DNA of 64,000 nucleotides from assembly GCA_038526275.1 (NCBI GenBank), contig JBCBGY010000001.1:16344-80343 (forward strand), read 5' to 3'. This DNA comes from Pseudomonadota bacterium. Its GTDB lineage: Bacteria > Pseudomonadota > Alphaproteobacteria > Rhodobacterales > Rhodobacteraceae. Shown in pieces: positions 2 to 30,998 of the stretch. A model generated the notes under the pieces. It did not search any database. It worked only from the letters and a program-made list of their open reading frames with translations, and was not told the origin of the DNA. The first letter of the stretch is position 1; the number at the start of each line of letters is the position of its first letter. The position numbers were made by a program, and so were the translations under genes.

Positions 2-997
2 TTGGGAGGCGTCTATATTGGCCTGGAGGACTGGCCCCGCACCGAACAGGTGATCCGCACGCTAAAGCGGGCCAACACAGAACGCGGCAACGCCATCGCC
101 GATCAACTGACCCTTGCAGTATTGCAAGCACAGGATCGCCAGGATGAGGTTCTGTCCTTCCTCGACGAACTTGCCTCGGAAGAGGGTGGCAATCTTGGCG
201 CCGAAATCGGTGTGCTGGATCTGCACCTGCAAAATGGCGAATTGGACAAGGCCGGCGAACATCTGGCCGGTCTGCTGGAACGCCGACCCGAGGATCGCGG
301 CCTTCGGTTCCTTGATGCCGTGCTGGAGGGCCTACAAGGGAATCCAGATGCGGCCATTGCCGGTTACCGAGAACTGTTGGCAGAGGACCCGGGCACAGAG
401 CGGATTTGGCTGGAACTGATCCGGTCGCTCAACGCCCAAGGGTTGGCTGACGAGGCTATGGCCGCTCTTCGCGACGGCATTGCCGCCAATCCCGAAGCCC
501 CCAACCTGCAATGGATGCTGGCAAGCCGTCTGGAAGCGGACGGCGACTTCGAGGGCGCCCTGAGTATCTATGAGGCGCTTTACGATCAGAATACCTCGAC
601 CAGCGTCATCGCCAATAACTTCGCCAGCCTATTGTCGACGCTGCGCGACGATCCGGAAAGCCTTGATCGCGCCTACCGCGTCGCCCGTCGCCTGCGGGAC
701 AGCGATTTCCCACCGTTTCAGGACACATATGGCTGGATTGCATACTTGCGGGGCGACCATGAAGAAGCCCTGCGACATCTGGAACCGGCTGCAAGAAGCC
801 TGGCCGAAGATCCGCAGGTGCAATACCATTTGGCGAAAACTTACATTGCCTTGAAGCAACCTGAAAAGGCCCGCCCGGTTCTGGAACGCGCCTTGGACAT
901 CGCAGGCGACGATCCGCGCCCCATCTTCGAAGATGCCCGCGAACAGCTGAACAAGCTCAGTTCCGCCGAAAGCACAGCTCCCACAGCCTCAGAGTGA
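2..997 (+). CDS. Tetratricopeptide-repeat protein of an exosortase/EPS locus (5'-truncated by window edge)
   Basis: Repeating helical TPR-like units (e.g. YGWIAYLRGDHEEALRHLE, QYHLAKTYIALKQPEKAR); lies upstream of wza-like and exosortase genes. Confidence 0.75.
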   Translation: MGGVYIGLEDWPRTEQVIRTLKRANTERGNAIADQLTLAVLQAQDRQDEVLSFLDELASEEGGNLGAEIGVLDLHLQNGELDKAGEHLAGLLERRPEDRGLRFLDAVLEGLQGNPDAAIAGYRELLAEDPGTERIWLELIRSLNAQGLADEAMAALRDGIAANPEAPNLQWMLASRLEADGDFEGALSIYEALYDQNTSTSVIANNFASLLSTLRDDPESLDRAYRVARRLRDSDFPPFQDTYGWIAYLRGDHEEALRHLEPAARSLAEDPQVQYHLAKTYIALKQPEKARPVLERALDIAGDDPRPIFEDAREQLNKLSSAESTAPTASE

Positions 998-1124
998 TGC
1001 GTAAAAACGACGATACCTGACCGGTTGTGGCGATTGGTCGAGAATTTTGGCCGAATACCTTCTCTACCCCGCCGCAATCGCTTATCCCGTAAACAAAGAC
1101 TAAACGATGCGGGTAGGGATCGAG

Positions 1125-1718
1125 ATGCGTAGCCTATGTTTTCTGCTGCTTTCGCTCTTTTTTGTGTCGGCCGCTGCCGCACAGAATTATGGCATCCAGC
1201 CAGGCGATAATCTTCAGATCGAGGTTGTTGAAGACAACACCTTGAACCGCTCGGTTCTTGTCACGCCTGACGGTCGGATAAGCTTCCCGCTGGCGGGCAC
1301 AGTCGACGTCGGCAACCGCACAGTTGAACAGGTCCGTCGTACGCTCATCAGCCGCCTGGCCCCGAACTTTGCCAACCCACCCACCGTGTTCGTTGCGGTG
1401 AGCCGGTTGGGCGAACGGCAACCGGAACCAGAAGCAGCGCTGGACACGATGACGATCTACCTTCTGGGAGAGGTCGAAAGCCCCGGCCCAAAACAGGTCG
1501 AATCCGGTCTGTCTATCCTGCAATTCCTGTCAACAAGCGGCGGATTTACCCGTTTCGCCGCGACCAAGCGCGTGCAAATCCGCCGGCGGGTTGGTCACAC
1601 CGAGAAACTGGTGAAGGTGAATTACCACGCCTTGGCACGGGGTGCGCGCCTTGTCCGCGATGTCATCCTGCACGATGGGGACGTCATCCTCGTCCCCGAA
1701 CGCCGCCTGTTCGAGTAA
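1125..1718 (+). CDS. Polysaccharide biosynthesis/export protein (Wza-like, Poly_export + SLBB)
   Basis: Signal peptide, then YGIQPGDNLQIEV...VTPDGRISFPLAG; SLBB-like GEVESPG...GGFTRFA; ends LHDGDVILVPE. Start set at ATG 1125 (alternative 1107). Confidence 0.9.
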   Translation: MRSLCFLLLSLFFVSAAAAQNYGIQPGDNLQIEVVEDNTLNRSVLVTPDGRISFPLAGTVDVGNRTVEQVRRTLISRLAPNFANPPTVFVAVSRLGERQPEPEAALDTMTIYLLGEVESPGPKQVESGLSILQFLSTSGGFTRFAATKRVQIRRRVGHTEKLVKVNYHALARGARLVRDVILHDGDVILVPERRLFE

Positions 1719-1722
1719 CCCG

Positions 1723-3102
1723 ATGAGGCTAAAGGACGCCCGTGGCAAGACATTGGGTCTGGCGCTGGTGATTGGGTCCGTGGGCGGTGTGATGGCGCAA
1801 GAGCGTCAACCACCTCCCGGCATCGAATACACGCTTGATGTCTCAACCGGCATTGTGACCAGCGATAACCTCGAGAACGTGGCCGACCCGAGCGGTCGTT
1901 CGACGTTTTCGCGGACGAACCTCACCTTCGGGGCACGCTCGCAAACGCGGACATCAAACCTGGCGCTTAGCTTCGGCGGTCGGCTGGAAGCCGGACACTT
2001 CGCCGAGGACGATGACACGACAACCCAGTTTGAAAACCCGTTCATCAACCTGTCCTACAGTCAGGAAGCGAAACGGGCCAATTTTACGTTCTTCGGCTCC
2101 TACCGCGAAACCGACATCAACCGCAGCCGCATCGTCGAGGACGAGTTCGAGAATGAAGACCTGATCGAGGATGACGGCACCCGGGCCGACACCGATCTGC
2201 GTTTTGGGATTGAGACCGACCCTGGCGGCACATGGGGCACCAGCCTCGACCTTCGCTATCGCACGCGGAGCTTTGACGGTGTCACCAGCGACGAACTGAC
2301 TGATACCGAACTCTTTTCCATCACCGCCGGTCTGCGGATGCTGGTAACCCCCACAACGACTGTCCGCCTGACGGCGTTCCAGTCGACCTTCACCGATGAT
2401 GACGAAGACAACACCGAGCAGAACACGTTCCGCTACGGGGGGTCAGTCAGCTATGACTTTACCCGAACGACCCGGTTCAATGCGGGCCTGTTCCATGTGC
2501 GCCTGGAAACCGATACCGATGACGACACCGATGTGGATGAGGGGCCGTCCTTCAATTTCGGCGTAGAACATGACCGACCCAACGGTGTGATCGCGGCGAA
2601 TTTTGCCAACAACGTTGTCCGCAACGGCCGGAGGCAAACCTTACGGGTGCGCCGCGACTACGAACTGAAACGCGGGGATCTGAGCTTTTCGGTCGGTGCG
2701 ACGCAGACCAACGGCAATGGGTGGGACCCGCTGTTTGGTGTCACCTACCAAGAAGATCTGAAGCGCGGCTCCTACCAGCTTCGACTCAGCCAGAACGGCC
2801 GGACCGATACTGATGGAGATTCGTTCACCAATACCCGGTTCAGCGCCAATTATCGGCATGATATCAATAGCATCTCCGGTCTGGAGCTTGATCTCGCCCT
2901 TACCGAAAGTGAAGCCGATGCCGAGGATGGCACAGACCGCCGCCGAACATCGTTCGGCGTGACCTACAGGCGGGATCTCACCCGCGACTGGCAGTTGCGC
3001 ACGGGCTATGAACATCGGGTAAGCCGGACCAATGACGAAGATACCCGCCGCACAAATACCTTATTCGCGACGATCAATCGCAGTTTTTCCCTGCGACCTT
3101 AG
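1723..3102 (+). CDS. Outer-membrane beta-barrel protein of EPS/exosortase locus
   Basis: Signal peptide, alternating beta-strand pattern, aromatic-rich C-terminal strand (TLFATINRSFSLRP); start placed at ATG 1723 just after the wza stop. Confidence 0.7.
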   Translation: MRLKDARGKTLGLALVIGSVGGVMAQERQPPPGIEYTLDVSTGIVTSDNLENVADPSGRSTFSRTNLTFGARSQTRTSNLALSFGGRLEAGHFAEDDDTTTQFENPFINLSYSQEAKRANFTFFGSYRETDINRSRIVEDEFENEDLIEDDGTRADTDLRFGIETDPGGTWGTSLDLRYRTRSFDGVTSDELTDTELFSITAGLRMLVTPTTTVRLTAFQSTFTDDDEDNTEQNTFRYGGSVSYDFTRTTRFNAGLFHVRLETDTDDDTDVDEGPSFNFGVEHDRPNGVIAANFANNVVRNGRRQTLRVRRDYELKRGDLSFSVGATQTNGNGWDPLFGVTYQEDLKRGSYQLRLSQNGRTDTDGDSFTNTRFSANYRHDINSISGLELDLALTESEADAEDGTDRRRTSFGVTYRRDLTRDWQLRTGYEHRVSRTNDEDTRRTNTLFATINRSFSLRP

Positions 3103-3216
3103 CGCTTGGTTAATGACACTCATGTGATCCCTTGTGCGGGTCGAAATCTTTAGCCTTTTGAGCTATGTGATCGACCGCGGGGGCGTCATCGAGCACCATT
3201 GTTGGGGACCGACGAG

Positions 3217-4800
3217 ATGAATGTGAATATTGCTGGCGTTCGGTCGGTTAATCCGCTGGGCCTTTTCTTCTTTTCCCTGCTTATGGTGGCCTCAGTCCCG
3301 ATTTTTTGGTTGGGATTTGAATCGCTTGCCCGTGCCTGGGCCACGCCGGAATACAGCCACGGGCCACTGATCCCGCTTATTTCGCTTTACCTCTTCATCC
3401 GAGAGCTTCGTAACTCTCCGCCGCTCGAGCCGGTCGTAACCGATCGGGCCCCGGGTGTCGTTGTGATCGTTGTGTCGCTGGCCATCGCCATTCTGGGCAA
3501 TATCGCGCGTATACCTGACATCGTGACCTATGCCTTCATCCTATGGACAGGCGGCGTTACGCTGACGGTTTTTGGTTGGAAACGCGGCATCACCCACTGG
3601 GCACCCGTTCTGCATCTGATCTTCATGTTGCCCCTGCCCCAGTTCTTGTACTGGCAGATGACCATCTTCCTCCAGGGCGTGTCGTCTGAACTGGGTGTGT
3701 GGTTTGTTCGTATGGCCGGTGTGTCGGTCTTCCTGGAAGGCAACATCATCGATCTGGGCGTCTTCAAACTGCAAGTGGCCGAGGCCTGTTCCGGCCTGCG
3801 TTACCTGTTCCCGATCCTCAGCTTTAGCTATCTGATGGCCATCCTCTACCGCGGGCCGATCTGGCATAAGGCGATCCTGTTGCTGTCCGCCGCGCCGTTG
3901 ACCGTGTTCATGAACTCGTTCCGCATCGGTGTTGTGGGCGTTGTGGTTAACTCCTACGGTATTGAGCATGCTGAAGGCTTCATGCACTTCTTCGAAGGCT
4001 GGATCATCTTTATCGCCTGCATTGCGATCCTGTTCCTGATGGCCATTTGCCTGCAGCGGCTGACACCAAACCCACTGCCCCTGTCGCAGGCCATCGATCT
4101 GGATTTCGAAGGTTTCGGCCCGATCATGGCCCGGATCGCTGGCATCAAGCTTTCCAAAGCGATGATTGCCGCTTGCGCCATCACTATCGCCATCACCTCT
4201 GCCTGGATCGTCTTCAAGCCGAATGGCGAGACAGTGCAGCTTGACCGTGACCCGTTTGTGCTGTTCCCAAATCGGATCGATGGCTGGGTTTCTGTTCGGA
4301 GCTCGCTGGAGCCAGAGGTCGAAGCGACGCTGGCTGCGGATGATTACCTGAACGCCACATTCTCCACTGCGGGTGAGCCGGCTGGTGTGAACATGTTCAT
4401 CGCCTACTATCACAACCAGACGGATGGTTCCGGCATCCATTCGCCCGAGGTCTGCCTGCCGGTGGGGGGCTGGGAAGTATTCAATCTGGCCGAGCACGAG
4501 GTGAGCTTTCCCGACTCAGTCTATGGCACGTTCAATGTGAACCGGGCGGTCATCGAAAAGGGCCTGTCACGGCAGCTGGTCTATTACTGGTTCGAACAGC
4601 GCGGCAAGCGGATGACCAACGACTTCGCCGCCAAGCTGAGCGTGGTCTATGACAGCCTGAGCGAAGGCCGCACCGACGGTTCGCTGATCCGTTTCGTCAC
4701 ACCGATTGCGCGTGGAGAAACCGAAGCGGAAGCCGAGGCCCGCATGCAACGCCTGATCGGGACGGTTCTTCCGAAGTTGCCTCGTTTCGTGCCGAACTGA
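3217..4800 (+). CDS. xrtD: Exosortase, XrtD (VPLPA-CTERM-specific) type, fused to C-terminal EpsI domain
   Basis: EYSHGPLIP, catalytic [22 protein letters not shown] motifs; EpsI domain with [12 protein letters not shown] and LVYYWF; subfamily assignment from sequence style and Rhodobacterales context. Confidence 0.85.
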
Positions 4801-4918
4801 CTTTTGGCGTAACGGTTGCCGGACCCGGCAGGTCTTGCCATCACCTTGCCCAAAATGTCACCGCAGAATGCGGTAATGAACTCGACAGTTCGCCTAATAC
4901 CTTACACATTTCCTTGGC

Positions 4919-6349
4919 ATGAACGAAGGTGCCAAGATGCGTGCCATGACTGATCGCAGCAGCGGCAACCCCGACAGGTTGGGCCTGGCCCTGCTGGTGG
5001 CCGTCATCGCCGTTTGCGCTGGTGCGGAACTCCTATTTCTTGCGGCGGACTGGGGGGTGCTCGACATCCCCCGCCTGCGCCAACGCGCCTATGATAACGG
5101 TGCGTTCCGTCCCCAACTGTTGCTGGGCACCTGGCGGCCGAACTATGCAGCGCAGCCCTGGACCATGTTTCTGACTTACGGCTTTCTGCATGGCGGGCCT
5201 ATCCATATGCTCGTAAATATGGCGACGCTTTGGTCCATCGGCCTACTGGTCCTGGACCGGATCGGGCCAAAAGGCTTGGCGTTACTTTATCTTGGCGCCC
5301 TACTAGGCGGCGCAGTCGCATATGGCGTGATTTCAGAATCGTTGCGCCTGATGGTGGGGGCATCTGGCGCACTATTTGGACTAGCCGGGGCCATGGTGAT
5401 CTGGCTTTGGGTCGACCGCGACCTGCATGCCGGCAACTTGCGGCTGATGTGGAACCTTTTGGGGTATCTGCTGGCGATGAACCTGGTCATGTACTGGGCG
5501 CTCGACGGTCAACTGGCCTGGGAAACCCACCTTGGGGGGTTCCTCGTGGGCTGCGGGTTGGGCTACACCCTCGATCGCCCGAGGAACGAACATTCCGAAG
5601 CAGAGATCGACCCGCCCGAACCGAGAAGGCTGACGTACCTCGTGGGCGACATACATGGCTGCTTCGCCCAACTCGACAACATGCTGGACCAAATCGCCCA
5701 ACATCGAAACGGACGCCCTGCGGATCTGGTCTTTCTCGGTGACTATGTCGACAGAGGTCCGGACAGCGCAGGAGTGTTGGAGCGCCTCATGGAACTGGAA
5801 CGTTCCCCCGACGTGACCTGCCTGATGGGCAATCACGACGTGATGATGCTGGGCTTCCTCGACGAACCTACCACAAAGGGTACCAGTTGGATGATCAATG
5901 GCGGCCAGGAAGCGCTGATCAGCTTTGGCCTCAATCCAATGGTCGCCGCACCCGATGCGGCCAGCCGGCAGACTCAACTGGCCCAAGGCCTGCGCGCCGC
6001 CATGCCCGACGGATTGGAAGACTGGATCAGAACAAGGCCGCTTTGGTGGCAAAGCGGCAATGTCATTGCTGCCCACGCTTTGACCATTCCTGATGCTCCG
6101 ATGTCGGAGCAAAGTGACGCAGTTCTGCTCTGGGCCAGGCCAAAGAAGGACACGCCGGCCCGATATGACGGCACTTGGGTCGTTCATGGTCATACAATTG
6201 TCCCAGAACCACGCATAACACCGGGATATATCGCTATTGATACAGGAGTATTCCGAACCGGTCGCCTGACTGCCGTGGTTTTAGGCGATGGACCAACACA
6301 GTTCCTGCAGGCAACAACCATGGTGGCATTCGCTGAGCAGACAGGATAA
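4919..6349 (+). CDS. Rhomboid intramembrane serine protease fused to a PPP-family (calcineurin-like) metallophosphoesterase
   Basis: One ORF: rhomboid motifs FLHGGPIHMLVN, GASG (Ser149), AWETHLGG (His204); then GDIHG, GDYVDRG, GNHD, HGHT, IDTG. Start uncertain (4919/4937/4946). Confidence 0.85.
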   Translation: MNEGAKMRAMTDRSSGNPDRLGLALLVAVIAVCAGAELLFLAADWGVLDIPRLRQRAYDNGAFRPQLLLGTWRPNYAAQPWTMFLTYGFLHGGPIHMLVNMATLWSIGLLVLDRIGPKGLALLYLGALLGGAVAYGVISESLRLMVGASGALFGLAGAMVIWLWVDRDLHAGNLRLMWNLLGYLLAMNLVMYWALDGQLAWETHLGGFLVGCGLGYTLDRPRNEHSEAEIDPPEPRRLTYLVGDIHGCFAQLDNMLDQIAQHRNGRPADLVFLGDYVDRGPDSAGVLERLMELERSPDVTCLMGNHDVMMLGFLDEPTTKGTSWMINGGQEALISFGLNPMVAAPDAASRQTQLAQGLRAAMPDGLEDWIRTRPLWWQSGNVIAAHALTIPDAPMSEQSDAVLLWARPKKDTPARYDGTWVVHGHTIVPEPRITPGYIAIDTGVFRTGRLTAVVLGDGPTQFLQATTMVAFAEQTG

Positions 6350-6381: not shown

Positions 6382-7794
6382 ATGATATACCCCGTCATTC
6401 TCTGTGGTGGTTCTGGCACCCGTTTGTGGCCCAGTTCCCGCAGATCCTACCCCAAGCAATTCACAGGCTTCTTTGGCGACGAGACCCTGTTTCAAGTCAC
6501 GCTGAAGCGCCTGACCGGGCCGGATTTCGGCCAGCCGCTGGTGATGACAAATGCCGACTTCCGGTTCATCGCAACCGAACAGTGCGAAGCCGTTGGATTG
6601 GCCGATGCGCGCGTTGTGATCGAGCCCGCATTGCGCAATACGGCCCCCGCCATTCTGGCAGCAGCCTTGTTGCTGGAAAACGAACCGGACGCCTTGATGC
6701 TGGTCGCCCCGTCCGACCATGTCATGACCGGAATTGACAGCTTTCTGGAAGCCGTCCGCGAAGGCGCCAAATCCGCCGCTGCAGGCAAGTTGGTCACCTT
6801 TGGTGTGACGCCGGATCGCCCTGAAACGGGTTACGGCTATCTCGAACTGGCCGCCCAACCTGACGGTCTGGCAGCATACCCCCTGACCAGCTTTACAGAA
6901 AAACCTGACCTGGAAACGGCTCAAGCCCTGCTGGCGGGCGGCAAACACCTGTGGAATGCGGGCCTGTTTCTGTTCCGGGTCCGCGACATCATCGCAGCGT
7001 TCGAGGCCCATGCACCAGATATGATGGCCCCCGTCCGAAAATCGGTGGAAACCGGCGAAACCGATTTGGGCTTTTTCCGTCTGGGCGAAGATGCCTATGC
7101 CGGTGCCCCATCGGACAGCATAGACTATGCGGTGATGGAAAAGGCCGACAATATTGCCGCCGTGCCCCTGACCAACGGCTGGTCAGACCTTGGCAGCTGG
7201 GATGCGCTCTGGGCTGCGTCGGATCCCGACTCAGACGGTATCGTAACGCAAGGGTCGGCCACCGCCGTCGACTGTGCGAATACGTTCCTGCGATCAGAAG
7301 AGGACAGTCTGCACCTGGTCGGAGTCGGTCTGAACAATGTCGTTGCCGTCGCCATGCGCGATGCTGTGCTCGTTGCCGACATGGAGAAGGCGCAGGATGT
7401 CAAGAAGGCAGTAACTCTGCTAAAACAATCTCAGGTTGAACAAGCGGAACACTATCCGCGTTTCCATAGACCATGGGGTTGGTATGAAACTTTGTGTCTG
7501 GGACAGCGTTTTCAGGTCAAGCGGATCATGGTGAAGCCGGGTGGTATCCTGTCATTACAAAGCCATGTCCATCGGTCGGAACACTGGATCGTCGTGGGCG
7601 GAACCGCAGAAGTTACCGTTGGTGAAGAGAAAAAACTGCTGACAGAAAACGAATCTGTCTACATTCCTCTGGGCGCCGTGCATCGCATGGCCAATCCTGG
7701 ACGGGTGCCCATGTACCTGATTGAGGTCCAAACAGGCACCTATCTGGGGGAAGATGACATTGTTCGTTACGAAGATGTTTACAATCGGGGCTAG
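6382..7794 (+). CDS. manC: Mannose-1-phosphate guanylyltransferase / mannose-6-phosphate isomerase
   Basis: PVILCGGSGTRLWP, PKQF, RNTAPAI, ETGYGY, EKPD, WNAG, SIDYAVME, WSDLGSW, C-terminal cupin RPWG...HRSEHW. Confidence 0.95.
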   Translation: MIYPVILCGGSGTRLWPSSRRSYPKQFTGFFGDETLFQVTLKRLTGPDFGQPLVMTNADFRFIATEQCEAVGLADARVVIEPALRNTAPAILAAALLLENEPDALMLVAPSDHVMTGIDSFLEAVREGAKSAAAGKLVTFGVTPDRPETGYGYLELAAQPDGLAAYPLTSFTEKPDLETAQALLAGGKHLWNAGLFLFRVRDIIAAFEAHAPDMMAPVRKSVETGETDLGFFRLGEDAYAGAPSDSIDYAVMEKADNIAAVPLTNGWSDLGSWDALWAASDPDSDGIVTQGSATAVDCANTFLRSEEDSLHLVGVGLNNVVAVAMRDAVLVADMEKAQDVKKAVTLLKQSQVEQAEHYPRFHRPWGWYETLCLGQRFQVKRIMVKPGGILSLQSHVHRSEHWIVVGGTAEVTVGEEKKLLTENESVYIPLGAVHRMANPGRVPMYLIEVQTGTYLGEDDIVRYEDVYNRG

Positions 7795-7873: not shown

Positions 7874-9139
7874 ATGAAGGTCATAATTTTCGGGCTCGGC
7901 TATGTGGGATTTACGGCGGGATGCTGCATCTCGTCAGAAGGCCACCAGGTCATCGGCGTCGATGTGAGCCAGAAGAAAGTGGATGCGATCAATGGCGGCG
8001 AAGCCCCAATCGTAGAACCCAAGGTTGCAGAAATGTTGAGCGACGCTCAGTCCAAGGGACTGTTTATCGCCGACACGCAGATTGGCAGCTATCTTGAAGG
8101 GGCAGATCTGGCGATCGTCTGTGTGGGCACGCCGTCAGCCGCCGATGGATCGCACAACATGGCATATATTGCCGATGTGAGCCGCCAGATCGCCCGGGCC
8201 CTGGCAGAGGGCACGGGAAAGCTGACCATCGCTTACCGGTCGACCATTCGCCCGGGCACGATCGAAGAGCTGATCCTGCCCATCTTCCGCTCAATCCTTG
8301 GAGACGAGACCGACGAACGGGTATCGCTGGTCTATAACCCGGAATTCCTGCGCGAAGGTTCTGCTGTTAAGGACTATTTCGAACCGCCGAAGATCGTGAT
8401 TGGCACACATGACGGCCAACCGAACCCGGCCATGGAAACCCTGAACGCCAATATCACTGCGCCGACCTTCTATGTTGGCTTCCGCGAGGCCGAGGTAACA
8501 AAGTTCGTCGACAATACCTGGCACGCTGTGAAAGTGGCCTTCGCCAATGAGATTGGGCGGGTCTGCCTTCAGACCGGTATATCGGCCAAGAAGGTGCATG
8601 AGATCTTCGTCAGCGACACCAAGCTGAACATCTCCCCCTACTACATGCGTCCGGGGGGAGCCTTTGGCGGGTCCTGCTTGCCCAAGGATGTGCGGGCGCT
8701 GCAGTATATTGGGGCCGACACAGGGTCGAACCTGCACTTGGTGGACAGCCTGATCCGCTCGAATGAGGCCCACAAGCATGCTCTTTTCGCCCATGCCGTT
8801 GATGGGTTGAAAGAAGGGGCATCGGTTTTGATGGCGGGCTTGGCCTTTAAGGCCGGAACCGACGATCTGCGCGAAAGCCCGAATGTCGATCTTGCACGGA
8901 AACTGCTGGCTGCGGGCTACAAGCTGGACATTTTTGATCCAGCCATCGCTGCCGATATGCTTGTCGGCGCGAACCTTGGCTATGCATTCAGCCAGTTGCC
9001 GACATTGGAGCGCATCCTTGTTGACCGAGACACGGCGCGCAACGGCAGCTACGATCGGGTGATCTCGACCAACGCGACGGTAAAGCAGTTAGATTTGCCT
9101 GCCGAAACCGAAATCCTAGATTTGGGGACGCTGCCATAA
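7874..9139 (+). CDS. GDP-mannose 6-dehydrogenase-like nucleotide-sugar dehydrogenase (AlgD-like)
   Basis: FGLGYVG, CVGTPS, NPEFLREG, YYMRPGGAFGGSCLPKDVRAL, GLAFKAGTDDLRESP, close to AlgD wording; adjacent to manC. Confidence 0.85.
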   Translation: MKVIIFGLGYVGFTAGCCISSEGHQVIGVDVSQKKVDAINGGEAPIVEPKVAEMLSDAQSKGLFIADTQIGSYLEGADLAIVCVGTPSAADGSHNMAYIADVSRQIARALAEGTGKLTIAYRSTIRPGTIEELILPIFRSILGDETDERVSLVYNPEFLREGSAVKDYFEPPKIVIGTHDGQPNPAMETLNANITAPTFYVGFREAEVTKFVDNTWHAVKVAFANEIGRVCLQTGISAKKVHEIFVSDTKLNISPYYMRPGGAFGGSCLPKDVRALQYIGADTGSNLHLVDSLIRSNEAHKHALFAHAVDGLKEGASVLMAGLAFKAGTDDLRESPNVDLARKLLAAGYKLDIFDPAIAADMLVGANLGYAFSQLPTLERILVDRDTARNGSYDRVISTNATVKQLDLPAETEILDLGTLP

Positions 9140-10380
9140 TGGATGGAGTGATTGAAAGCCGAACCCCTCGCATGGATGCGGTCCGCGCCGAGCAGCCGCT
9201 TGCCGGACGAAAGGTGCTGATCGTTGTCGAAAACCTGCCCTTGCCGTTTGACCGCAGGGTTTGGCACGAATGCCGGACCCTGACTGCGGCGGGCGCTCTT
9301 GTCAGTGTGATCTGCCCCACCGGCAAGGGTTATGAAGCGCCTTACGAAGAGATCGACGGGGTGCATATCTATCGCCATAAATTGCCCTTCGACGCGTCTG
9401 GCGCGATCGGGTACTTGGTCGAATATGGCGCGGCGCTTTGGCACGAAATGCGTTTGGCCCTTCGAATCGCGCGAAAGCACGGGTTCGATACGATTCAGGG
9501 CTGCAATCCGCCTGACCTGATCTTCCTCGTCGCGTTGCCCTTCAAGCTGTTCGGCAAGCGCTACATCTTTGATCATCACGATATTAACCCAGAGCTCTAC
9601 GAGGCCAAGTTCAACGAGCGCGGCTTTTTCTGGCGGTTGATGATGACCTTCGAGAAGTGGACCTTCCGCACGGCAAAGGTCGTCATCTCGACCAACAATT
9701 CCTATCGCGACATTGCAATGACCCGTGGCGGCAAGAAGGCCGAAGACGTCTTCGTCGTGCGCTCCGGCCCCGACCTGACCCGCCTGCATGTCCTGCCGCC
9801 GAACGACAAATGGCGCAACGGGCGCAAGCATATGGTCGGCTATGTCGGGGTGATGGGCGCGCAGGAAGGATTAGATCTTCTGCTCGAAAGCGCGAAGGAC
9901 ATGATCCAGAACCGTGGGATCGATGTGCAATTCGTGCTGGTCGGTGGTGGCCCGTCCCTGGCAGAGCTTCAGGCGATGGCCGCGGATATGGGTCTGCAAG
10001 ACCACGTTACCTTTACCGGTCGCGCGCCGGATCAGGATTTGTTTGAGGTGCTGTCAACGGCGGATGTGTGCGTGAACCCGGATCGCGTGAACCCGATGAA
10101 CGACAAATCCACAATGAACAAGATTCTGGAATATATGGCCTTTTCAAAGCCGATCGTGCAGTTCGAAGTGGCCGAAGGGCGGTACTCCGCACAGGATGCC
10201 TCGCTTTACGCCGTGCCGAACGACACCAAGGACATGGCCGACAAGATTGCGGAACTGCTGGAAGATCCCGAAAGGCGCGCCAAAATGGGTCAGTTTGGGC
10301 GCGCCCGGGTCGAGGCGGAACTGAGCTGGGATCACCAGGTAGATACGCTCATCGCCGCCTATAAACGGGCCGCCGCTTAA
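9139..10380 (+). CDS. Glycosyltransferase family 4
   Basis: VENLPLPFDRRVW, HHDINPE, YVGVMGAQEG, KILEYMA (EX7E region); TAATG coupling to upstream gene. Confidence 0.9.
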   Translation: MDGVIESRTPRMDAVRAEQPLAGRKVLIVVENLPLPFDRRVWHECRTLTAAGALVSVICPTGKGYEAPYEEIDGVHIYRHKLPFDASGAIGYLVEYGAALWHEMRLALRIARKHGFDTIQGCNPPDLIFLVALPFKLFGKRYIFDHHDINPELYEAKFNERGFFWRLMMTFEKWTFRTAKVVISTNNSYRDIAMTRGGKKAEDVFVVRSGPDLTRLHVLPPNDKWRNGRKHMVGYVGVMGAQEGLDLLLESAKDMIQNRGIDVQFVLVGGGPSLAELQAMAADMGLQDHVTFTGRAPDQDLFEVLSTADVCVNPDRVNPMNDKSTMNKILEYMAFSKPIVQFEVAEGRYSAQDASLYAVPNDTKDMADKIAELLEDPERRAKMGQFGRARVEAELSWDHQVDTLIAAYKRAAA

Positions 10381-10799: not shown

Positions 10800-11561
10800 A
10801 TGTCCACAATGCTGTTCAGCAATTTGCCCAATATCAGCCACTGGTCCGACCGGGTCGATCTGGCCGCAGCCTTCCGCTGGACGGCCCGGCTGAACATGCA
10901 CGAAGCCGTGGCAAACCATTTCAGCCTCGCGGTAAATGACAGCGGCACCAAATTCCTGATGAACCCCAATCAGGTGCATTTTTCGCGCATTCGCGCCTCT
11001 GATCTGCTGCTGATCGATGCTGAAGATCCCCAAACGCTCAACGCTGCCAATGCGCCCGACCCAACAGCCTGGGGGCTTCACGGTGCCTTGCATCGTAAGT
11101 GTCCCCATGCCCGTTGTGCCATGCATGTGCATTCGATTTTCGCCACTGTGCTGGCATCGCTCGAAGATAGCCGCCTGCCGCCCATCGATCAGAACTGCGC
11201 CATGTTCTACGACCGGTGCGTGATCGACGAAGAATATGGAGGACTGGCCTTCGAAGAAGAGGGCGAGCGCTGCGCCGAGCTTTTGCAGGATCCCAAGCAC
11301 AAGGTGCTGATCATGGGGAACCACGGCGTCATGGTCATTGGCGAAACTGTCGCTGACACGTTCAATCGGCTTTACTACTTTGAGCGCGCGGCGGAGACTT
11401 ACATCCGAGCCTTGCAAACCGGTCAGCGTCTGCGCGTCATTCCCAAAGATATTGCCGAAAAAACCGCGCAAGAGATCGAGGACTATCCCGACCAGGCCAC
11501 AAAGCACCTGTCCGAGTTGAAGCTCATTCTGGACGCCGAGGATCCAGACTACGCCAAATGA
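10800..11561 (+). CDS. Class II aldolase/adducin family protein
   Basis: NHFS, GLHGALH, MHVHS (Zn-binding His), MGNHG; AGGAGG RBS before ATG 10800. Confidence 0.85.
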   Translation: MSTMLFSNLPNISHWSDRVDLAAAFRWTARLNMHEAVANHFSLAVNDSGTKFLMNPNQVHFSRIRASDLLLIDAEDPQTLNAANAPDPTAWGLHGALHRKCPHARCAMHVHSIFATVLASLEDSRLPPIDQNCAMFYDRCVIDEEYGGLAFEEEGERCAELLQDPKHKVLIMGNHGVMVIGETVADTFNRLYYFERAAETYIRALQTGQRLRVIPKDIAEKTAQEIEDYPDQATKHLSELKLILDAEDPDYAK

Positions 11562-11574
11562 GCCCTAGGTTCGC

Positions 11575-12414
11575 ATGACCGGAACGCTCCTTTCCCTGGG
11601 CCACGGCTATTCTGCTCGGGCGGTGGCCAAGCTTTTGCAGCCGCTCGGGTGGCAGATTAGCGGCACCACGCGCTCCGCAGACAAAATAGCGGCCTTGAAG
11701 GCGACAGGGGTCACGCCTCTGATCGTGCCCGGTGATCCGCTGGATTTATCGGGTGTCACACATTTGTTGATCTCGGCCAGCCCCGATGCAGATGGCGACC
11801 CGTTCCTGCCGTTGATCAAAGAGGCTTTGGCGACACAGACTCCGCCTTGGATCGGCTATCTGTCCACGACGGGCGTTTACGGCGATCACCAGGGCCGATG
11901 GGTCGACGAAGAGACGCCCTGCACGCCCGGCAACCAGCGCGGCAAATGGCGGGTGCGGGCGGAGCAGCAATGGCTTGAACATGGCGCCCATATCTTTCGC
12001 CTTGCGGGCATCTACGGGCCGGGGCGCGGTCCATTTTCAAAGGTTCGCAATGGGACGGCACGGCGGATCATCAAGCCGGGCCAGGTGTTTGGCCGGATCC
12101 ATGTGGAAGACATTGCCCAGGTGGTTGTTGCGTCGATTGACCGGCCTAATCCCGGTCGGATCTACAATGTGTGTGACGACGAACCCGCCCCGCCGGAAGA
12201 CGTGCTGGGCTATGCAGCAGAACTTCTCGGCGTGCCACTGCCGCCCGAAGAAGATTTTGAGACCGCAGAGATGACCCCCATGGCCCGCAGTTTCTACGCT
12301 GAGAGCCGCAGGGTCCGAAATGACCGGATCAAATCAGAGCTTGGCGTGAGGCTGCGCTATCCGGATTACCGGTCCGGCCTTCAGGCTCTGCTGGCCGCCG
12401 AAGCCATCGCCTGA
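11575..12414 (+). CDS. NAD-dependent epimerase/dehydratase (atypical SDR, YeeZ-like)
   Basis: LGHGYSA, YLSTTGVYGD, FRLAGIYGPGR, RIHVEDI, YNVCDD. Confidence 0.85.
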   Translation: MTGTLLSLGHGYSARAVAKLLQPLGWQISGTTRSADKIAALKATGVTPLIVPGDPLDLSGVTHLLISASPDADGDPFLPLIKEALATQTPPWIGYLSTTGVYGDHQGRWVDEETPCTPGNQRGKWRVRAEQQWLEHGAHIFRLAGIYGPGRGPFSKVRNGTARRIIKPGQVFGRIHVEDIAQVVVASIDRPNPGRIYNVCDDEPAPPEDVLGYAAELLGVPLPPEEDFETAEMTPMARSFYAESRRVRNDRIKSELGVRLRYPDYRSGLQALLAAEAIA

Positions 12415-12488
12415 CACGCCCGCGCCTATTTGCGGAAAGAACCGCTGATGCGTCTTGCGAAGTTCCCCGCATGGCGAGATACTGCGCC

Positions 12489-14288
12489 ATGACGCAACGA
12501 TTTCCGTCTTGGCAAGACAGTGCCGCCGCATTGATCGCGACGGCCCATGGCGAAACAGCGGCCGATCTGGTCGTAACCGGCGGCAAAGTCGTTCTGGTTC
12601 AAACCCGTGAAATCCTCGACTGGCAGATCGCGGTCAAAGCTGGACGGTTCGCCTATGTCGGCCCGGATGCCAGCCATTGCATAGGTCCGGAGACAACACA
12701 GATCGACGCAGCTGGCCGTTACGTGATCCCAGGCTTCTGCGACGGCCACCTGCATATCGAAAGCGGCATGTTGACGCCTGCCGAATTCGCCCGTGCCGTC
12801 ATCCCCCACGGCACCACCACCCTTCTTACCGATCCCCATGAGATCGCGAATGTCCTGGGCCTCGCCGGGGTGCGCCTGATGCATGACGAGGCGGCGTTGC
12901 AGCCCATCAACATCTATACCCAGATGCCCTCCTGCGCCCCGTCAGCCCCAGGGTTGGAGACCACAGGCCACGAAATCACGCCAGCCGATGTGGCAGAAGC
13001 CATGTCCTGGCCTGGCATTATCGGGCTGGGCGAGATGATGAACTTTCCAGGCGTCATCCATCGTGACCCGAAGATGCTGGCCGAAATTGCAGCAACCCAG
13101 GCCGCAGGCAAAACCGTGGGCGGCCACTATGCCTCACCCGATCTTGGCCCCGCCTTTCATGCTTATGCCGCCGGTGGGCCTGCGGATGACCATGAGGGCA
13201 CCTGCGAGGCCGACGCGATTGCCCGGATGCGTCAGGGCATGCGCGCGATGATCCGTTTGGGCAGCGCCTGGTACGATGTGGAAAGCCAGATTACGGCGAT
13301 CACGGAACAGGGACTCGACCCCCGGAACATGATCCTGTGCACGGATGACTGCCATTCCGGCACGCTCGTCCATGACGGGCACATGGATCGGGTGGTGCGC
13401 CACGCCATCGATTGCGGTTGCCCGCCCTTGATCGCGCTGCAAATGGCCAGCGTGAACACCGCCACCCATTTCGGGCTGGAGCGCGAACTTGGCAGTATCG
13501 CGCCCGGACGCCGCGCCGACATGATCTTGACCTCTGATCTGACGACGTTGCCCATCGAACGGGTCATCGCGGGCGGAAAAACCGTGGCAGAGGCTGGTCA
13601 GATCACTACAGAGTGCCCGCACCTCGATTGGCCCGCGACAGCGCGACAAACCGTTCGAATGGCGCGACCTGTGACGGCCACGGATTTCGATATCCCTGCG
13701 CCGCCAGGGGCCCAAACGGTCACGGCACAGGTGATCGGCGTTGTCGAAAATCAGGCCCCGACCCAGGCCCTGACGGCAGAGATTGATGTTGAGGCTGGCA
13801 TGTTGGCCCCAAAAGGCGACGTGGCCCGGATTGCCCTGGTCGAACGGCACAAGGCCACGGGCGGCGTAACGAACGGCCTGGTGTCCGGTTTTGGCTACAC
13901 TACGTCGATGGCCCTGGCCTCGACCGTCGCCCATGACAGTCACCATATGATTGTGGTCGGCACGTCGCCGGGCGATATGGCTCTGGCCGCGAACCGGCTG
14001 GCGGAGGTCGGAGGCGGCGTAACCTTCTGGCAGGACGGTGCCGAACAGGCCTTGATCGAACTTCCAATCGCGGGGCTCATGTCTGACCGCCCGGCAGCCG
14101 AAGTCGCGGCCAAAGCCGACCAACTGGGCGCAGCCATGCGCGCCGCCGGATGCAGCCTGAACAATGCCTTCATGCAGCATTCGCTTCTGGCGCTCGTGGT
14201 GATCCCGGAACTCCGGATCTCTGATCTTGGCTTGGTCGATGTGAGGGAGTTCGCCCTGACAGATCTAGTTGTGGCGGAGGTGCCATGA
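12489..14288 (+). CDS. ade: Adenine deaminase
   Basis: PGFCDGHLHIES, DPHEIANV, EMMNFPG, DHE, CTDD, STVAHDSH motifs. Confidence 0.95.
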   Translation: MTQRFPSWQDSAAALIATAHGETAADLVVTGGKVVLVQTREILDWQIAVKAGRFAYVGPDASHCIGPETTQIDAAGRYVIPGFCDGHLHIESGMLTPAEFARAVIPHGTTTLLTDPHEIANVLGLAGVRLMHDEAALQPINIYTQMPSCAPSAPGLETTGHEITPADVAEAMSWPGIIGLGEMMNFPGVIHRDPKMLAEIAATQAAGKTVGGHYASPDLGPAFHAYAAGGPADDHEGTCEADAIARMRQGMRAMIRLGSAWYDVESQITAITEQGLDPRNMILCTDDCHSGTLVHDGHMDRVVRHAIDCGCPPLIALQMASVNTATHFGLERELGSIAPGRRADMILTSDLTTLPIERVIAGGKTVAEAGQITTECPHLDWPATARQTVRMARPVTATDFDIPAPPGAQTVTAQVIGVVENQAPTQALTAEIDVEAGMLAPKGDVARIALVERHKATGGVTNGLVSGFGYTTSMALASTVAHDSHHMIVVGTSPGDMALAANRLAEVGGGVTFWQDGAEQALIELPIAGLMSDRPAAEVAAKADQLGAAMRAAGCSLNNAFMQHSLLALVVIPELRISDLGLVDVREFALTDLVVAEVP

Positions 14289-26520: not shown

Positions 26521-29500
26521 TCAGGCGATGTCTTCGGGCAAGGCTGTGATGAACTCAATATCGTCCACCAACTCATTCACATCAGCGACGCCACGCACCT
26601 GAAGCGTGTCGCCATTGCCAAAGGTGAACTGGGTGAAGATGCGACCGACCTGATCGGCGAACTGATCCACCACTTCCTGGGCCGTTAGATCGGCATTGTC
26701 CCAAAGCTCCGTGTTGAAGAGGATCGTGTCGACATCATTTTCGAAATCCAAAACGAGGTCGCGGTCCGAATCCCGTTCATAGTAGAACGTGTCGCCGCCA
26801 GCCCGACCAAGCAACAGATCATTCCCGGTGCCACCGTCGAGGAAATCTTCGTTGTTGCCGCCATCCAAGCGGTCTGCACCCTCTCCACCGAAGAGACTGT
26901 CATTTCCATTGCCGCCGCGCAGATCGTCGATGCCTTCGCCACCGAACAGTTGGTCAACACCCATTCCGGCCGCGAGGATGTCGTTTCCAGCACCCCCTGC
27001 AAGAAAATCGTCACCTTGGCGGCCCCGGATAACGTTGTTGCCATCACTGCCGAAGATCACGTCAGCCGCGGTCGTGCCGCGAACATCTGCGTTTGTCGTC
27101 CCTTGCAGCGTGAATTCGGTGACACCCGCGTCCAGGAAGAAGTTGGCATAGAACGGCGCATCAGCAATGACGGTCAAATCCTGATCGGCGACAGAGGTTT
27201 GGCCGATACCGCCGATGGCATCCGGCTCGTTTACAACGATGGCATTGCCGTCTTGAGCAGCATTCAAAGCCAGGTCGAAATCGCCAAAGGCTCCGATCTG
27301 CTGTTGCAGATCCGGCGAGGCGAATACGGACACGAACACGGTCGGTTCATCCGGTCCCAGATCGAGGCCGATGATGACCGGGTCGTGGTCCGAATTGCGG
27401 AACGGGACCGAGCCGTCAAAGATGGACGCGTCCCTGCCAAATTCCAGATTGTAGTCCAGCGCGTCCGGCTCGTCTGCATTGACATGCCATTCGGTGGCGC
27501 CAGTGACCTGATCCAACAGGCCCGCATTGGCCAGCGCATAGTCGAGCGTACCGGTCAGACCGTCAAAGACGAAGCTGTAGGCATCCTCACCCACAAACTG
27601 TTCGGCCAGATCCGTGAAGCCCTGGCTTTCCAGATAGGTGATCGGGTCTTCGTTGGCATAGGCATTCAGGTCACCGAGGATCAGAATGTCTTCATCACCG
27701 GAACCGGTCGGGTCCCCGGCGAGCCAGGCTTCCAATTCAATAGCGGCCTTTGTACGGGTGTCGTTCCAAAATCCTTGGCCGTCCAACTGATCGCTGTCCG
27801 GATCTGCCGCGTCGCCAGCGGTCAGACCGCTGCTGCCTTTGGATTTGAAGTGGTTGACGGATGCAGTGAAGCTTTCGCGGGTCTCAATCTCTTGGAAGGT
27901 CTGGGCCAAAGCTGCGCGGTTGCGGCCACCATCGGTGGTACTGTTGGGATCGATGAACGCTTCGGTGTCCAGCACCGCCGCGTCTCCGACCAGGGTCGTA
28001 GAGGTGGTGTCGTAGATGAAGCCCACGGCGATTGCGTCGCCGCCCACAAATTCCGACGTTGTCGTAGTTTGGCCAGACGGGCGCACCCAATCGTAGATCG
28101 TGCCACCGAGCGACGCGTTCACCGCATCGACCAGCTCCTGGATCGCAACGCCAGACCCGATGACATTACCTGTGCCGGTCGGGGCATCGCCGCCGGTGGC
28201 AAAGTCGTTTTCCAACTCGACCAGGCCCACAACGTCGGCATCCATTGCGACCAGGGCTTGCACCAGCTTATCGAGTTGCCGGTTATATTCCTCATCGAAG
28301 GCAGGCGTCGGGTCGGCATTCTGCGGATTGGCATCTGCACCGCGCGGGTCCAGACCATTCGGGCCAGAGCCCTCGTCCGCATCTGGGAACTCGTCCAGCG
28401 TCGTGAAGAAGTTCAGAACGTTCAGGCTGGCGACCTTGTAGTCTGACCCCACATCCTCGGGCGCGTCCTCGCGTTCATTGACCTTGTCGAACGTGTTCTC
28501 GCCGTCCTGCGTCGCGCGCACCCGCCAGGTGGCGCCGGAAGCTGCGTCGCCCGCCCATTGGTAGCTCAACACGCCAGACAGATCGTCGATCGTGTCGCCC
28601 ATGCGGATGTCTGTGGCGGTGCTAAAGGTCGGGCCGAACCCATCAAGGTTGCCGATAGCGGCGTTCTGTTCGCTTAGGCCATCGTCATAGGTGATGGTGC
28701 GGCTGCCAACCTCTTCCAGATAGGCGGCGAAGCTTGCAGCATCCGGGTCGTTGAACTGCGTGAACTGTTCCGGACGATCGCCCTCGGTCAGCTTGATCTC
28801 GTTGAACCGGTCAAGCTGGAACATCTCGGTAATGGTCAACGTGTCGGCGAACGTGACCAGCATGCCCTCAAACGCTTCGAGATCGGGCTGAAAATCGCCG
28901 TCCTGGCTCAGCGTCGTGCTGCTGGAGGGCAGATCGATCGTGGCCGCCGTGGGCAGCGTATTGCCAGAAGAGATGATGGTAATGTCGGTGATCGTATCAA
29001 GCTGCGTCTCGCCAAAGAACTCGTCGACCGTGCCGGTGATCTGAACTTTGTCGCCGACATTGACGTCGGTGATGAAGTCGCCGTTCTCGAAGACGAAGAT
29101 ACCTTCCGACGTGGCAACATCACCATCGGCGTCCGCATCCTCTTCCTGGATATAGAAGCCCCGCAAGTCACGGCTATCATCCGCGTCACCATCCTGGAAA
29201 TCGCCCACAACGATGGCTTCGACCGTCACAACCTGATCGTCGAGCAGGTTCTGGTCTTCGGTGCCCTGGATTTCGTGGATCTTGGTAAGCGCAACCTCGT
29301 CGCTGGTGATCGTGCCTTCGCCCGTATCATCTGCGATCTCGACGCCGTTCGTTGCGTTTGACAGAGCCACGGTAAAGGTCTCGTCCGCCTCTACATCCGT
29401 GTCGTCGATCAGATCCACTGTGACCTGCTGCGTTTCGCCTGCAGTACCGGCAAAAATCAGCGTCCCCGACGTTGCAACATAGTCGCTGCCAGCCAGTGCG

Positions 29501-30831: not shown

Positions 30832-30998
30832 CGCCCTGTCCTTGCAAACGCCGACTAATTTTACGTGGAGGTACGACATCCGCGAGCAAAACAAGATCTT
30901 GCCTGACGGATTTCCCCCCTGACCCGGTCCATATGGGATTTAGCGGGCGGGGAATATTCATAGTTTTATGACGCTGCGTTAATACCCCAGCAGTTTGA

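Follow-up and report, generated by a model that had tools for sequence, protein, structure and literature searches.

A rare rhomboid–PPP phosphatase fusion in a Rhodobacteraceae exopolysaccharide export locus and its probable origin from a conserved gene pair

Why would an exopolysaccharide (EPS) export locus make an intramembrane protease and a phosphatase as one polypeptide? The question is raised by a gene in a 64,000-nucleotide stretch of contig JBCBGY010000001.1 (assembly GCA_038526275.1, a marine alphaproteobacterium of the Rhodobacteraceae), called the window below, in which a rhomboid and a PPP-family metallophosphatase share one open reading frame (ORF). We suggest that the phosphatase is the counterpart of Wzb for the tyrosine kinase (BY-kinase) of the locus, fixed to the membrane by the fusion, and that the rhomboid is active on a substrate in trans; we give this reading a probability of roughly 0.6. 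Neither domain family is new, and genetics exist for that of the phosphatase; the novelty lies in the architecture, the conserved rhomboid-phosphatase pair and an EPS-locus-specific rhomboid subfamily. Homologous loci are cited below by L numbers and individual database matches by P numbers.

The original prediction, made from the letters of the DNA, had described a single uninterrupted ORF joining a complete six-transmembrane (six-TM) rhomboid to a phosphatase with all its metal motifs, and the ORF list, Pfam and the motifs confirm it (Table 1). Rhomboid (PF01694) matches residues 81-218 with 92.3 bits (gathering threshold 22.6, E 4e-26) and Metallophos (PF00149) residues 241-428 with 53.4 bits (threshold 21.5, E 6e-14); the only further Pfam content is a sub-threshold FBPase_2 match. 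The motifs lie where they had been placed, with Ser149 of the rhomboid dyad in GASG (codon 5363-5365) and His204 at codon 5528-5530, and with the phosphatase motifs GDIHG at residues 243-247 (5645-5659), GDYVDRG at 274-280 (5738-5758), GNHD at 304-307 (5828-5839), H386 and HGHT at 423-426 (HGH, 6185-6193). The rhomboid part additionally has WR at residues 72-73, H96xxxN100 and Glu37 in TM1 (5027-5029). Residues ~215-241, which include the linker, contain no in-frame ATG or GTG, as had been claimed, and no TTG; the nearest start-type codons are GTG210 and TTG214 within TM6 and GTG242 one residue ahead of GDIHG. As to the bounds, the frame is indeed open over 4919-6349, but the true start is probably not 4919 but one of two later codons, ATG 4937, which GAAGG precedes at a distance of 7 nt, or ATG 4946, which NCBI uses in the 467-aa copies from metagenome-assembled genomes (MAGs). 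This correction has no effect on the fusion finding.

Hydropathy places the TM segments at residues 21-43, 82-105, 118-138, 143-165, 174-195 and 200-218. Since hydropathy and the AlphaFold model agree on six TM helices and the N-terminus is basic, both termini of the fused protein are predicted to be cytoplasmic (N-in/C-in), and the phosphatase would therefore face the cytoplasm, the side that had been proposed for it.

Could the joined frame be an assembly or sequencing error, or a gene that a recent deletion, neutral or deleterious, has set on course for pseudogenisation? Nearly all homologues are separate genes, and the closest split relatives overlap by 4 bp, so a small deletion that removes the stop and the first ~12-15 phosphatase codons could merge them. 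Against this, the fused ORF is found in all four members of its 90%-identity protein cluster, which were assembled independently (two as NCBI MAGs, two by Logan) and differ by a few amino acids, and again in a second species, as WP_239479839.1 (466 aa) of the cultured isolate Actibacterium sp. 188UL27-1 (L003). Identity between the two fused orthologues is 76% for the rhomboid part, 63% for the phosphatase part and 68% for the whole, and the Actibacterium gene order (XrtD ... fusion - ManC - dehydrogenase - GT4) matches that of the window. Every catalytic residue of both halves is intact in both orthologues, and low ratios of nonsynonymous to synonymous substitution rates between them (dN/dS; rhomboid ~0.13, phosphatase ~0.11, dS near saturation) show that both halves are under purifying selection. 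The linker has diverged to 37% identity and has gained or lost one codon, with the frame still open. The low dN/dS, the drifted and still open linker and the independent assemblies effectively exclude an artefact or a decaying gene, an explanation that we find barely credible; sequencing error in particular was rejected on the four assemblies, the Actibacterium orthologue and the selection on both halves. The fusion is thus real, as had been claimed, and lineage-specific.

The architecture is also very rare, with two clusters in the databases searched. Among the best 120 of 648 matches in 5.8 billion protein clusters, both domains occur only in the self-match, and in a phmmer search of 1.84 billion representatives the best 150 matches each cover residues ~14-229 or ~213-476, never both. 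A fused relative would outscore such half-matches, and none stood among the best matches of either search. The Actibacterium fusion (L003, 10001-11401; P0002, P0124) is a 285-aa phosphatase in GenBank, called from a Met within TM6, and the 466-aa fusion in RefSeq; its architecture is missing from the list of database matches because the short GenBank call represents the 90% cluster. No further fusion was detected among 80 phosphatase-family genome loci, 12 rhomboid-subfamily metagenome loci and the other contexts examined, and the phosphatase matches with long N-terminal extensions (P0191 and others) contain no hidden rhomboid or TM anchor and resemble miscalled starts. No description of a rhomboid with a C-terminal enzymatic domain of such a kind was found in the literature searched. 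The cluster search, the phmmer scan and the literature are in line with the original prediction that this architecture had not been characterised.

Where does the fusion come from? Comparison of the loci traces it to a rhomboid gene and a phosphatase gene that form a conserved pair, often with coupled translation, in PEP-CTERM/XrtD-type EPS export loci of Rhodobacterales. In L170 and L171, which encode the closest stand-alone phosphatases (52% and 50% identity), the rhomboid and phosphatase genes overlap by 4 bp (ATGA), an arrangement typical of translational coupling. The two genes are adjacent with a gap of 361 bp in Sulfitobacter (L014), separated by a single sulfotransferase gene in A. ureilyticum (L002) and by two opposite-strand genes in Albidovulum (L004). 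Homologues that are always separate and unlinked to exosortase loci had been named as what would speak against the fusion; almost all are separate indeed, yet the separate genes are linked and often share a 4-bp overlap, so that their arrangement speaks in favour of a functional pair, not against it.

At the junction, the fused proteins retain the rhomboid up to TM6 plus 'LD(R/A)P' and then continue directly with the phosphatase's own Pro-rich spacer (fused …HSEAEIDPPEPRRLTYLVGDIHG versus stand-alone MKRLARIFRRDAAPHEEEGPMPQPERLTFLVGDIHG). Lost are the stop codon of the rhomboid and, from the phosphatase, a basic-hydrophobic peptide of 12-15 N-terminal residues. With this peptide lost and the spacer kept, the phosphatase would hang from the cytoplasmic end of TM6 via a flexible linker of ~20 aa. 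The N-terminal peptide is a hallmark of the family: across 179 stand-alone phosphatases it is rich in Leu, Phe, Arg and Lys, the first 16 residues carry +2.8 net charge on average, and there is no TM segment and no signal peptide. It may be a tether to the membrane or to a partner.

The 3' ends hold a further similarity. The fused gene ends in GAGCAGACAGGATAA (window 6330-6349, encoding …EQTG*) and the stand-alone rhomboid gene of L170 in GAGCAGACAGGATGA (7985-8004, also encoding …EQTG*), where AGGA is the Shine-Dalgarno sequence of the overlapping phosphatase gene. The L170 rhomboid gene shares its 3' end exactly with the last 13 nt ahead of the fused-gene stop, GAGCAGACAGGAT; the Actibacterium fusion ends in …AQTG*, and stand-alone phosphatases end otherwise. 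The shared 13-mer may be chance, or may hint that the phosphatase region was inserted before the last codons of the rhomboid instead of being joined by simple deletion.

What does the phosphatase act on? The two halves were aligned and modelled separately. The AlphaFold2 model of the phosphatase (mean pLDDT confidence 91.9) has as nearest folds, all with probability 1.00, lambda PP, the ApaH-like 2qjc, RLPH2, PnkP, ApaH, PP1, PP5 and PP2A, and the GDxHG, GDxVDRG and GNH[ED] motifs and the downstream His ligands are invariant in the family alignment (A2). By these features the C-terminal half is predicted to be a catalytically intact PPP phosphatase. It stays below all curated NCBIfam equivalog cut-offs compared: ApaH with 73.8 versus 176 bits, and PrpA, PrpB, PrpE and PnkP with 46.3/326, 42.3/332, 55.6/340 and 60.7/750.

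Genomic context points to polysaccharide export. For the family, 80 loci among the matches listed were counted, and the loci of the closest relatives were recovered separately via the contigs that encode them. By tblastn, a Wzc/BY-kinase gene lies within 10 kb of the phosphatase in 30 of the 80 loci, Wza in 24, a Bac_transf priming transferase in 18 and BTLCP, a bacterial transglutaminase-like cysteine protease (HvyA-like), in 11. In the wza-wzb-wzc order, the slot between Wza and the kinase is the classical wzb position, and on a PGAP-annotated plasmid of Pseudosulfitobacter (P. pseudonitzschiae; L172) the phosphatase gene occupies the place between Wza and a 'polysaccharide biosynthesis tyrosine autokinase'. 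The locus L066 of Caulobacter sp. Root655 corresponds gene for gene to the published Caulobacter capsule cluster (Wzc, Wzy, pssY, the BTLCP gene hvyA, metallophosphatase, Wza). Residues 14-242 of the 253 in the L066 phosphatase align with the window domain at 38% identity (tblastn, E 8e-31). In C. crescentus the corresponding gene, CCNA_00167, is termed a 'Wzb-like metallophosphatase' of the capsule export cluster; its in-frame deletion abolished the capsule and was complemented in trans (PMC4241560, Ardissone et al. 2014). Through this syntenic L066 orthologue, the window phosphatase is assigned by sequence to the alphaproteobacterial CCNA_00167-type EPS/capsule family in 'Wzb position'. CCNA_00167 itself, of the same PPP-type family, is encoded in a Wzy/Wzc/Wza-type polysaccharide locus and is required for the capsule. 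Proteins of its type stand alone, are soluble and ~260 aa long, begin with a basic peptide and have Wza and BTLCP (HvyA) genes as neighbours, whereas in the window protein, from an XrtD-type locus, a six-TM rhomboid replaces the peptide and the spacer is kept. The idea, already raised in the original prediction, that the phosphatase dephosphorylates EPS machinery fits both the Wzc/Wza linkage of the family and the Caulobacter genetics.

Two observations concern other partners of this family. The BTLCP gene lies ~0.8-2 kb from the phosphatase gene in the 11 loci that have it (L017, L018, L032, L038, L043, L046, L058, L064, L065, L066 and L071, from Bradyrhizobium, Caulobacter and Hyphomonadaceae), a pairing that parallels the one with the rhomboid, since a protease adjoins the phosphatase in both. 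A phosphatase of this family also occurs in P0033 (Jannaschia sp. S6380, 628 aa), N-terminally fused there to a GT2 glycosyltransferase that has TM segments at its C-terminal end; this independent second fusion links the family to membrane-associated polysaccharide synthesis.

Rhizobia have a comparable protein. PssZ of R. leguminosarum, a PPP Ser/Thr phosphatase of 263 aa, is encoded in the Pss-I EPS region, and bacteria that lack it are EPS-deficient (PMC6071215, PMC6628131). By motifs (GDYVDRG and GNHD) and by a metal-ligand spacing (43/76/107/186/225) close to that of the window domain, PssZ probably belongs to the same family, and it too is encoded in an EPS locus; it differs in standing alone, in its description as a Ser/Thr phosphatase and in its first motif, SDVHG. 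The window phosphatase family was detected on 43 Rhizobium and 80 Sinorhizobium replicons. A tyrosine substrate has a precedent among PPP-type enzymes: RLPH2 (Rhizobiales-like phosphatase 2) of Arabidopsis is a bona fide Tyr phosphatase (PMC12817480), so that phosphotyrosine specificity does occur in its branch of PPP enzymes. RLPH2 (5vjv), a 'bacterial-like' PPP, is among the structures closest to the window domain (sequence E 9e-10, Foldseek TM 0.66); at 21% identity, eukaryotic and cytosolic and with another C-terminal region, its specificity is not transferable to the window domain. The classical enzymes of this role, Wzb (a low-molecular-weight protein tyrosine phosphatase, LMW-PTP) and CpsB (a PHP phosphatase), reset the tyrosine autokinase that gates polymerisation and export. 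They share with the window domain the proposed role and the genomic slot, and their folds are unrelated to it: the window domain is a binuclear-metal PPP phosphatase with no LMW-PTP or PHP domain, and so at most a functional analogue. Neither an LMW-PTP nor a PHP phosphatase was found in the Pfam gene tables of the sampled homologous loci.

We therefore favour a mechanism that runs as follows. The phosphatase would dephosphorylate the C-terminal tyrosine cluster of the BY-kinase of its locus and would thereby drive the phosphorylation cycle required for Wzc-type polymerisation and export. In the split state, docking of the phosphatase, either to the rhomboid or to the membrane itself, would be the task of the N-terminal peptide; the fusion would turn this peptide tether into a covalent one, holding the enzyme at the inner membrane beside the machinery. 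The rhomboid would stay an active protease and would cleave, in trans, a membrane protein of this machinery that has a single TM segment, with VPLPA-CTERM proteins and the chain-length determinant as candidate substrates.

Several observations weigh against this mechanism. The window contains no BY-kinase gene, although L001, L090, L093, L096 and L101, which are homologous loci, have one in divergent orientation upstream. In the homologous XrtD-type loci the genes for the tyrosine autokinase, the chain-length determinant and the PEP-CTERM ATPase diverge from the gene for a TPR protein and lie upstream of it, and the window starts inside that TPR gene; by analogy the kinase gene would lie a short way beyond the start of the window and so out of view. 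About half of the 80 phosphatase-family loci have no EPS gene within 10 kb by tblastn. No substrate assay for any CCNA_00167-type phosphatase was found in the literature searched, and 'Wzb-like' is an annotation. A physical interaction of rhomboid and phosphatase in the split state is putative, and the amphipathicity of the N-terminal peptide exceeds that of shuffled sequences only modestly (0.56 versus 0.47). Finally, the best partial NCBIfam matches of the phosphatase are ApaH, PnkP and PrpE, all far under cut-off, which leaves room for a non-protein substrate.

In that case the enzyme would hydrolyse a small phosphorylated molecule of membrane polysaccharide synthesis, for instance diadenosine tetraphosphate (Ap4A) or another nucleotide, the 3'-phosphoadenosine 5'-phosphate (PAP) that sulfotransferases leave behind, or a phosphate linked to a sugar or a lipid, and the rhomboid would provide its membrane placement. 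The top partial score for a symmetrical Ap4A hydrolase, followed by PnkP and PrpE, the presence of ApaH-like 2qjc and ApaH among the nearest folds and the Jannaschia GT2 fusion are consistent with such a substrate, as are the sulfotransferase genes of some loci, one of which lies exactly between rhomboid and phosphatase in L002. But the matches are far under the family cut-offs and mostly cover the shared metal-binding N-terminal half, Wzc tyrosine kinases and Wza, rather than sulfotransferases, dominate among the neighbours in the genome, and no sulfotransferase gene adjoins the fused gene in the window operon. We consider a small-molecule substrate quite improbable and hold to the kinase-directed phosphatase.

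The second half of the question concerns the rhomboid. In the alignment of its subfamily (A3, 23 members) the Ser-His dyad, HxxxN and WR are invariant, and so are two further features that may be peculiar to the subfamily, WxPNYxxQP in the L1 loop and a glutamate in the middle of TM1 (Glu37 in the window protein); the last two are possible substrate- or partner-recognition features. The AlphaFold2 model (pLDDT 88.2) has GlpG or iRhom as all of its top 31 Foldseek matches in the PDB, with probability 1.00 and target TM scores of 0.65-0.70 at E values of only ~1e-3, and a sequence-only search of the PDB with the rhomboid returned nothing at 1e-3. The N-terminal half is thus predicted to be a catalytically intact six-TM rhomboid with a GlpG-like fold, forming a distinct subfamily. 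The rhombosortase model TIGR03902 scores 29.3 bits for the window protein and 39.6 for the stand-alone rhomboid of L170, below its cut-off of 84, and the GlpG model scores 16 for the window rhomboid, against a cut-off of 250. The window rhomboid shares with the rhombosortase RrtA and with GlpG the fold of a six-TM serine protease, the GxSG/His dyad, HxxxN and WR, and with rhombosortase the setting in a cell-surface sorting or export context; unlike GlpG it has no N-terminal cytoplasmic domain, and unlike rhombosortase it is not known to be linked to GlyGly-CTERM; the sorting signals seen near its relatives are VPLPA-CTERM.

The subfamily has a fixed genomic address. In 11 loci (L084, L090, L091, L093, L095, L096, L097, L098, L101, L170 and L171) the rhomboid gene directly follows Bac_transf - TPR - Wza-like - outer-membrane protein (OMP) genes, with or without XrtD between. 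Other members lie inside other polysaccharide loci (L001/L086, L088). That of L088/L089 is accompanied by GT2, UGDH, Alg13/14-like and deacetylase genes, on a contig with Rep3 and ParAB that is probably a plasmid, and no exosortase was detected there within 10 kb. Similarly, XrtD was not detected within 8-10 kb of the rhomboid or the pair in L090, L093, L096, L101, L170 and L171, and the Pfam search of selected genes downstream of the rhomboid found no exosortase domain in L090, L093 and L101. These six loci tie the rhomboid more closely to the TPR-Wza-OMP export module than to XrtD.

This bears on another explanation, in which the rhomboid cleavage is coupled to XrtD sorting: the protease would clear or process VPLPA-CTERM anchors (stubs left by XrtD, or whole anchors as an alternative route of release) and the phosphatase would regulate the same pathway. 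XrtD is the upstream neighbour in the window, L002, L004, L014 and L098, and in L003 with one gene between. Two textbook VPLPA-CTERM genes adjoin the stand-alone rhomboid of L084 (Table 1), and further ones occur within 10 kb in L014, L088 and L094 (one each in L088 and L094). VPLPA-CTERM helices are oriented N-out/C-in and contain small or helix-breaking residues (PAAG...GLGG) of the type favoured by rhomboids, so that their orientation and residues suit rhomboid cleavage, and the top NCBIfam match of the subfamily is rhombosortase, not GlpG, though under cut-off. Against it stand the six loci in which the rhomboid or the pair follows the OMP gene with no XrtD nearby, the complete absence of VPLPA-CTERM ORFs from the 64-kb window, a density of such genes beside rhomboids that is not clearly above that of control loci, and the rhombosortase score of 29 bits versus 84. 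The specific link to XrtD and its anchors that the original prediction had drawn is thereby weakened, and we regard the coupling to sorting as unlikely. The literature search returned no biological paper on XrtD.

The original prediction had also considered that the rhomboid might release its own phosphatase. In GlpG structures the active site of the rhomboid opens to the periplasmic side; the linker of the fused protein is cytoplasmic and follows the His-bearing helix, and self-release is for these reasons topologically implausible and was rejected. Among other candidate rhomboid substrates, L090_521 and L101_484 were discarded as probably spurious wrong-frame ORFs, and the RTX-like L084_478 and L093_542 because they have no C-terminal TM signal.

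A more far-reaching proposal, possible but doubtful, is that the rhomboid subfamily is a dedicated and hitherto overlooked core part of the PEP-CTERM/XrtD-type polysaccharide export machine of Rhodobacterales, in physical complex with the BY-kinase phosphatase, and that its cleavage is coupled to the tyrosine phosphorylation cycle that gates export. The targets cleaved may then be a component of the machine or a cargo anchor, such as the chain-length determinant or VPLPA-CTERM tails.

The fused gene is part of an operon for EPS export and synthesis (Table 1), and the matches to TIGR04152 and TIGR01479 together with the neighbouring genes confirm its expected position between xrtD and manC. The TPR gene matches the PrsT model TIGR02917 partially (116 bits, under cut-off) and is syntenic with the TPR genes of L002, L003, L170 and L171, which encode 809-838 aa. 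The Wza-like gene lies 3.2 kb upstream of the fused gene in the same operon, and its top NCBIfam match is the XrtA/PEP-CTERM export protein, under cut-off; the L170 orthologue of the OMP gene has a weak match to the PEP-CTERM-associated OMP model TIGR03016. XrtD and the fused gene are separated by only 118 bp (4801-4918) in the window, and in Actibacterium an additional gene for a 149-aa HD_4 (RelA/SpoT-like HD) protein lies between the two (L003, 9443-9892). The genes past GT4 are housekeeping genes (Aldolase_II, adenine deaminase, AMP nucleosidase). Promoter and terminator scans of the operon gave counts at or under the shuffle expectation.

Table 1. Features of the fused gene, its operon in the window and the VPLPA-CTERM genes beside the stand-alone rhomboid of L084
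Locus	Feature	Position	Strand	Basis or remark
Window	Fused rhomboid-PPP phosphatase gene	4919..6349	+	Single uninterrupted 476-aa ORF (ORF list and raw sequence)
Window	Rhomboid core, six predicted TM helices (residues 21-218)	4979..5572	+	Pfam, hydropathy, motifs, subfamily alignment, AlphaFold2 model
Window	Pro/Glu-rich linker, predicted cytoplasmic (residues 219-238)	5573..5632	+	Junction compared with L170, L171 and L003
Window	PPP-family metallophosphatase domain (residues 239-463)	5633..6307	+	Pfam, AlphaFold2 model, PDB sequence matches
Window	PrsT-like TPR protein gene, 3' part (cut by the window start), first in the export module	2..997	+	TPR Pfam families
Window	Short Wza-like polysaccharide export protein (Poly_export and SLBB)	1107..1718	+	PF02563, PF10531
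Window	Outer-membrane beta-barrel protein of the module	1642..3102	+	PF13505 OMP_b-brl; limits are those of the ORF, true start probably just past 1718
Window	XrtD exosortase with fused EpsI domain	3199..4800	+	TIGR04152, 673.5 bits (cut-off 400); PF09721 and PF11984
Window	ManC, mannose-1-phosphate guanylyltransferase / mannose-6-phosphate isomerase	6382..7794	+	TIGR01479, 585 bits
Window	Nucleotide-sugar dehydrogenase	7874..9139	+	TIGR03026, 370 bits
Window	GT4 glycosyltransferase, final EPS-operon gene in the window	9139..10380	+	PF13692, PF00534
L084	VPLPA-CTERM genes	10855-11697 and 12112-13482	-	Tails ...IPLPAAGWLLI[TS]GLGGLA[AM]LRRRRK

Two further large proteins were observed elsewhere in the window, both encoded on the minus strand. 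A 1456-aa protein (26521-30894) combines Calx-beta, Exo_endo_phos (endonuclease/exonuclease/phosphatase) and C-terminal RTX repeats and is likely a secreted substrate of a type I secretion system, and a 1081-aa protein (35275-38523) is a fusion of CheB methylesterase, CheR methyltransferase and PAS domains.

For the alphaproteobacteria, the finding strengthens the case that many of them employ a PPP-family enzyme instead of Wzb or CpsB, and the fusion suggests that membrane tethering matters for the action of capsule-type phosphatases. Routine searches by domain architecture miss the fusion, since the short GenBank gene call serves as cluster representative. A cultured strain, Actibacterium sp. 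188UL27-1, carries the fused gene, which makes genetic and biochemical work feasible. To our knowledge, physiological roles have been assigned to only a few bacterial rhomboids, Providencia AarA/TatA and the predicted rhombosortases among them. For the well-defined subfamily described above, the EPS export locus is a fixed address and a phosphatase, overlapped, adjacent or fused, is a fixed neighbour, which gives it a testable pathway and partner. If rhomboid and phosphatase do form a complex within the export machine, the fusion would be the Rosetta stone that exposes it and would give a bacterial rhomboid a physiological pathway.

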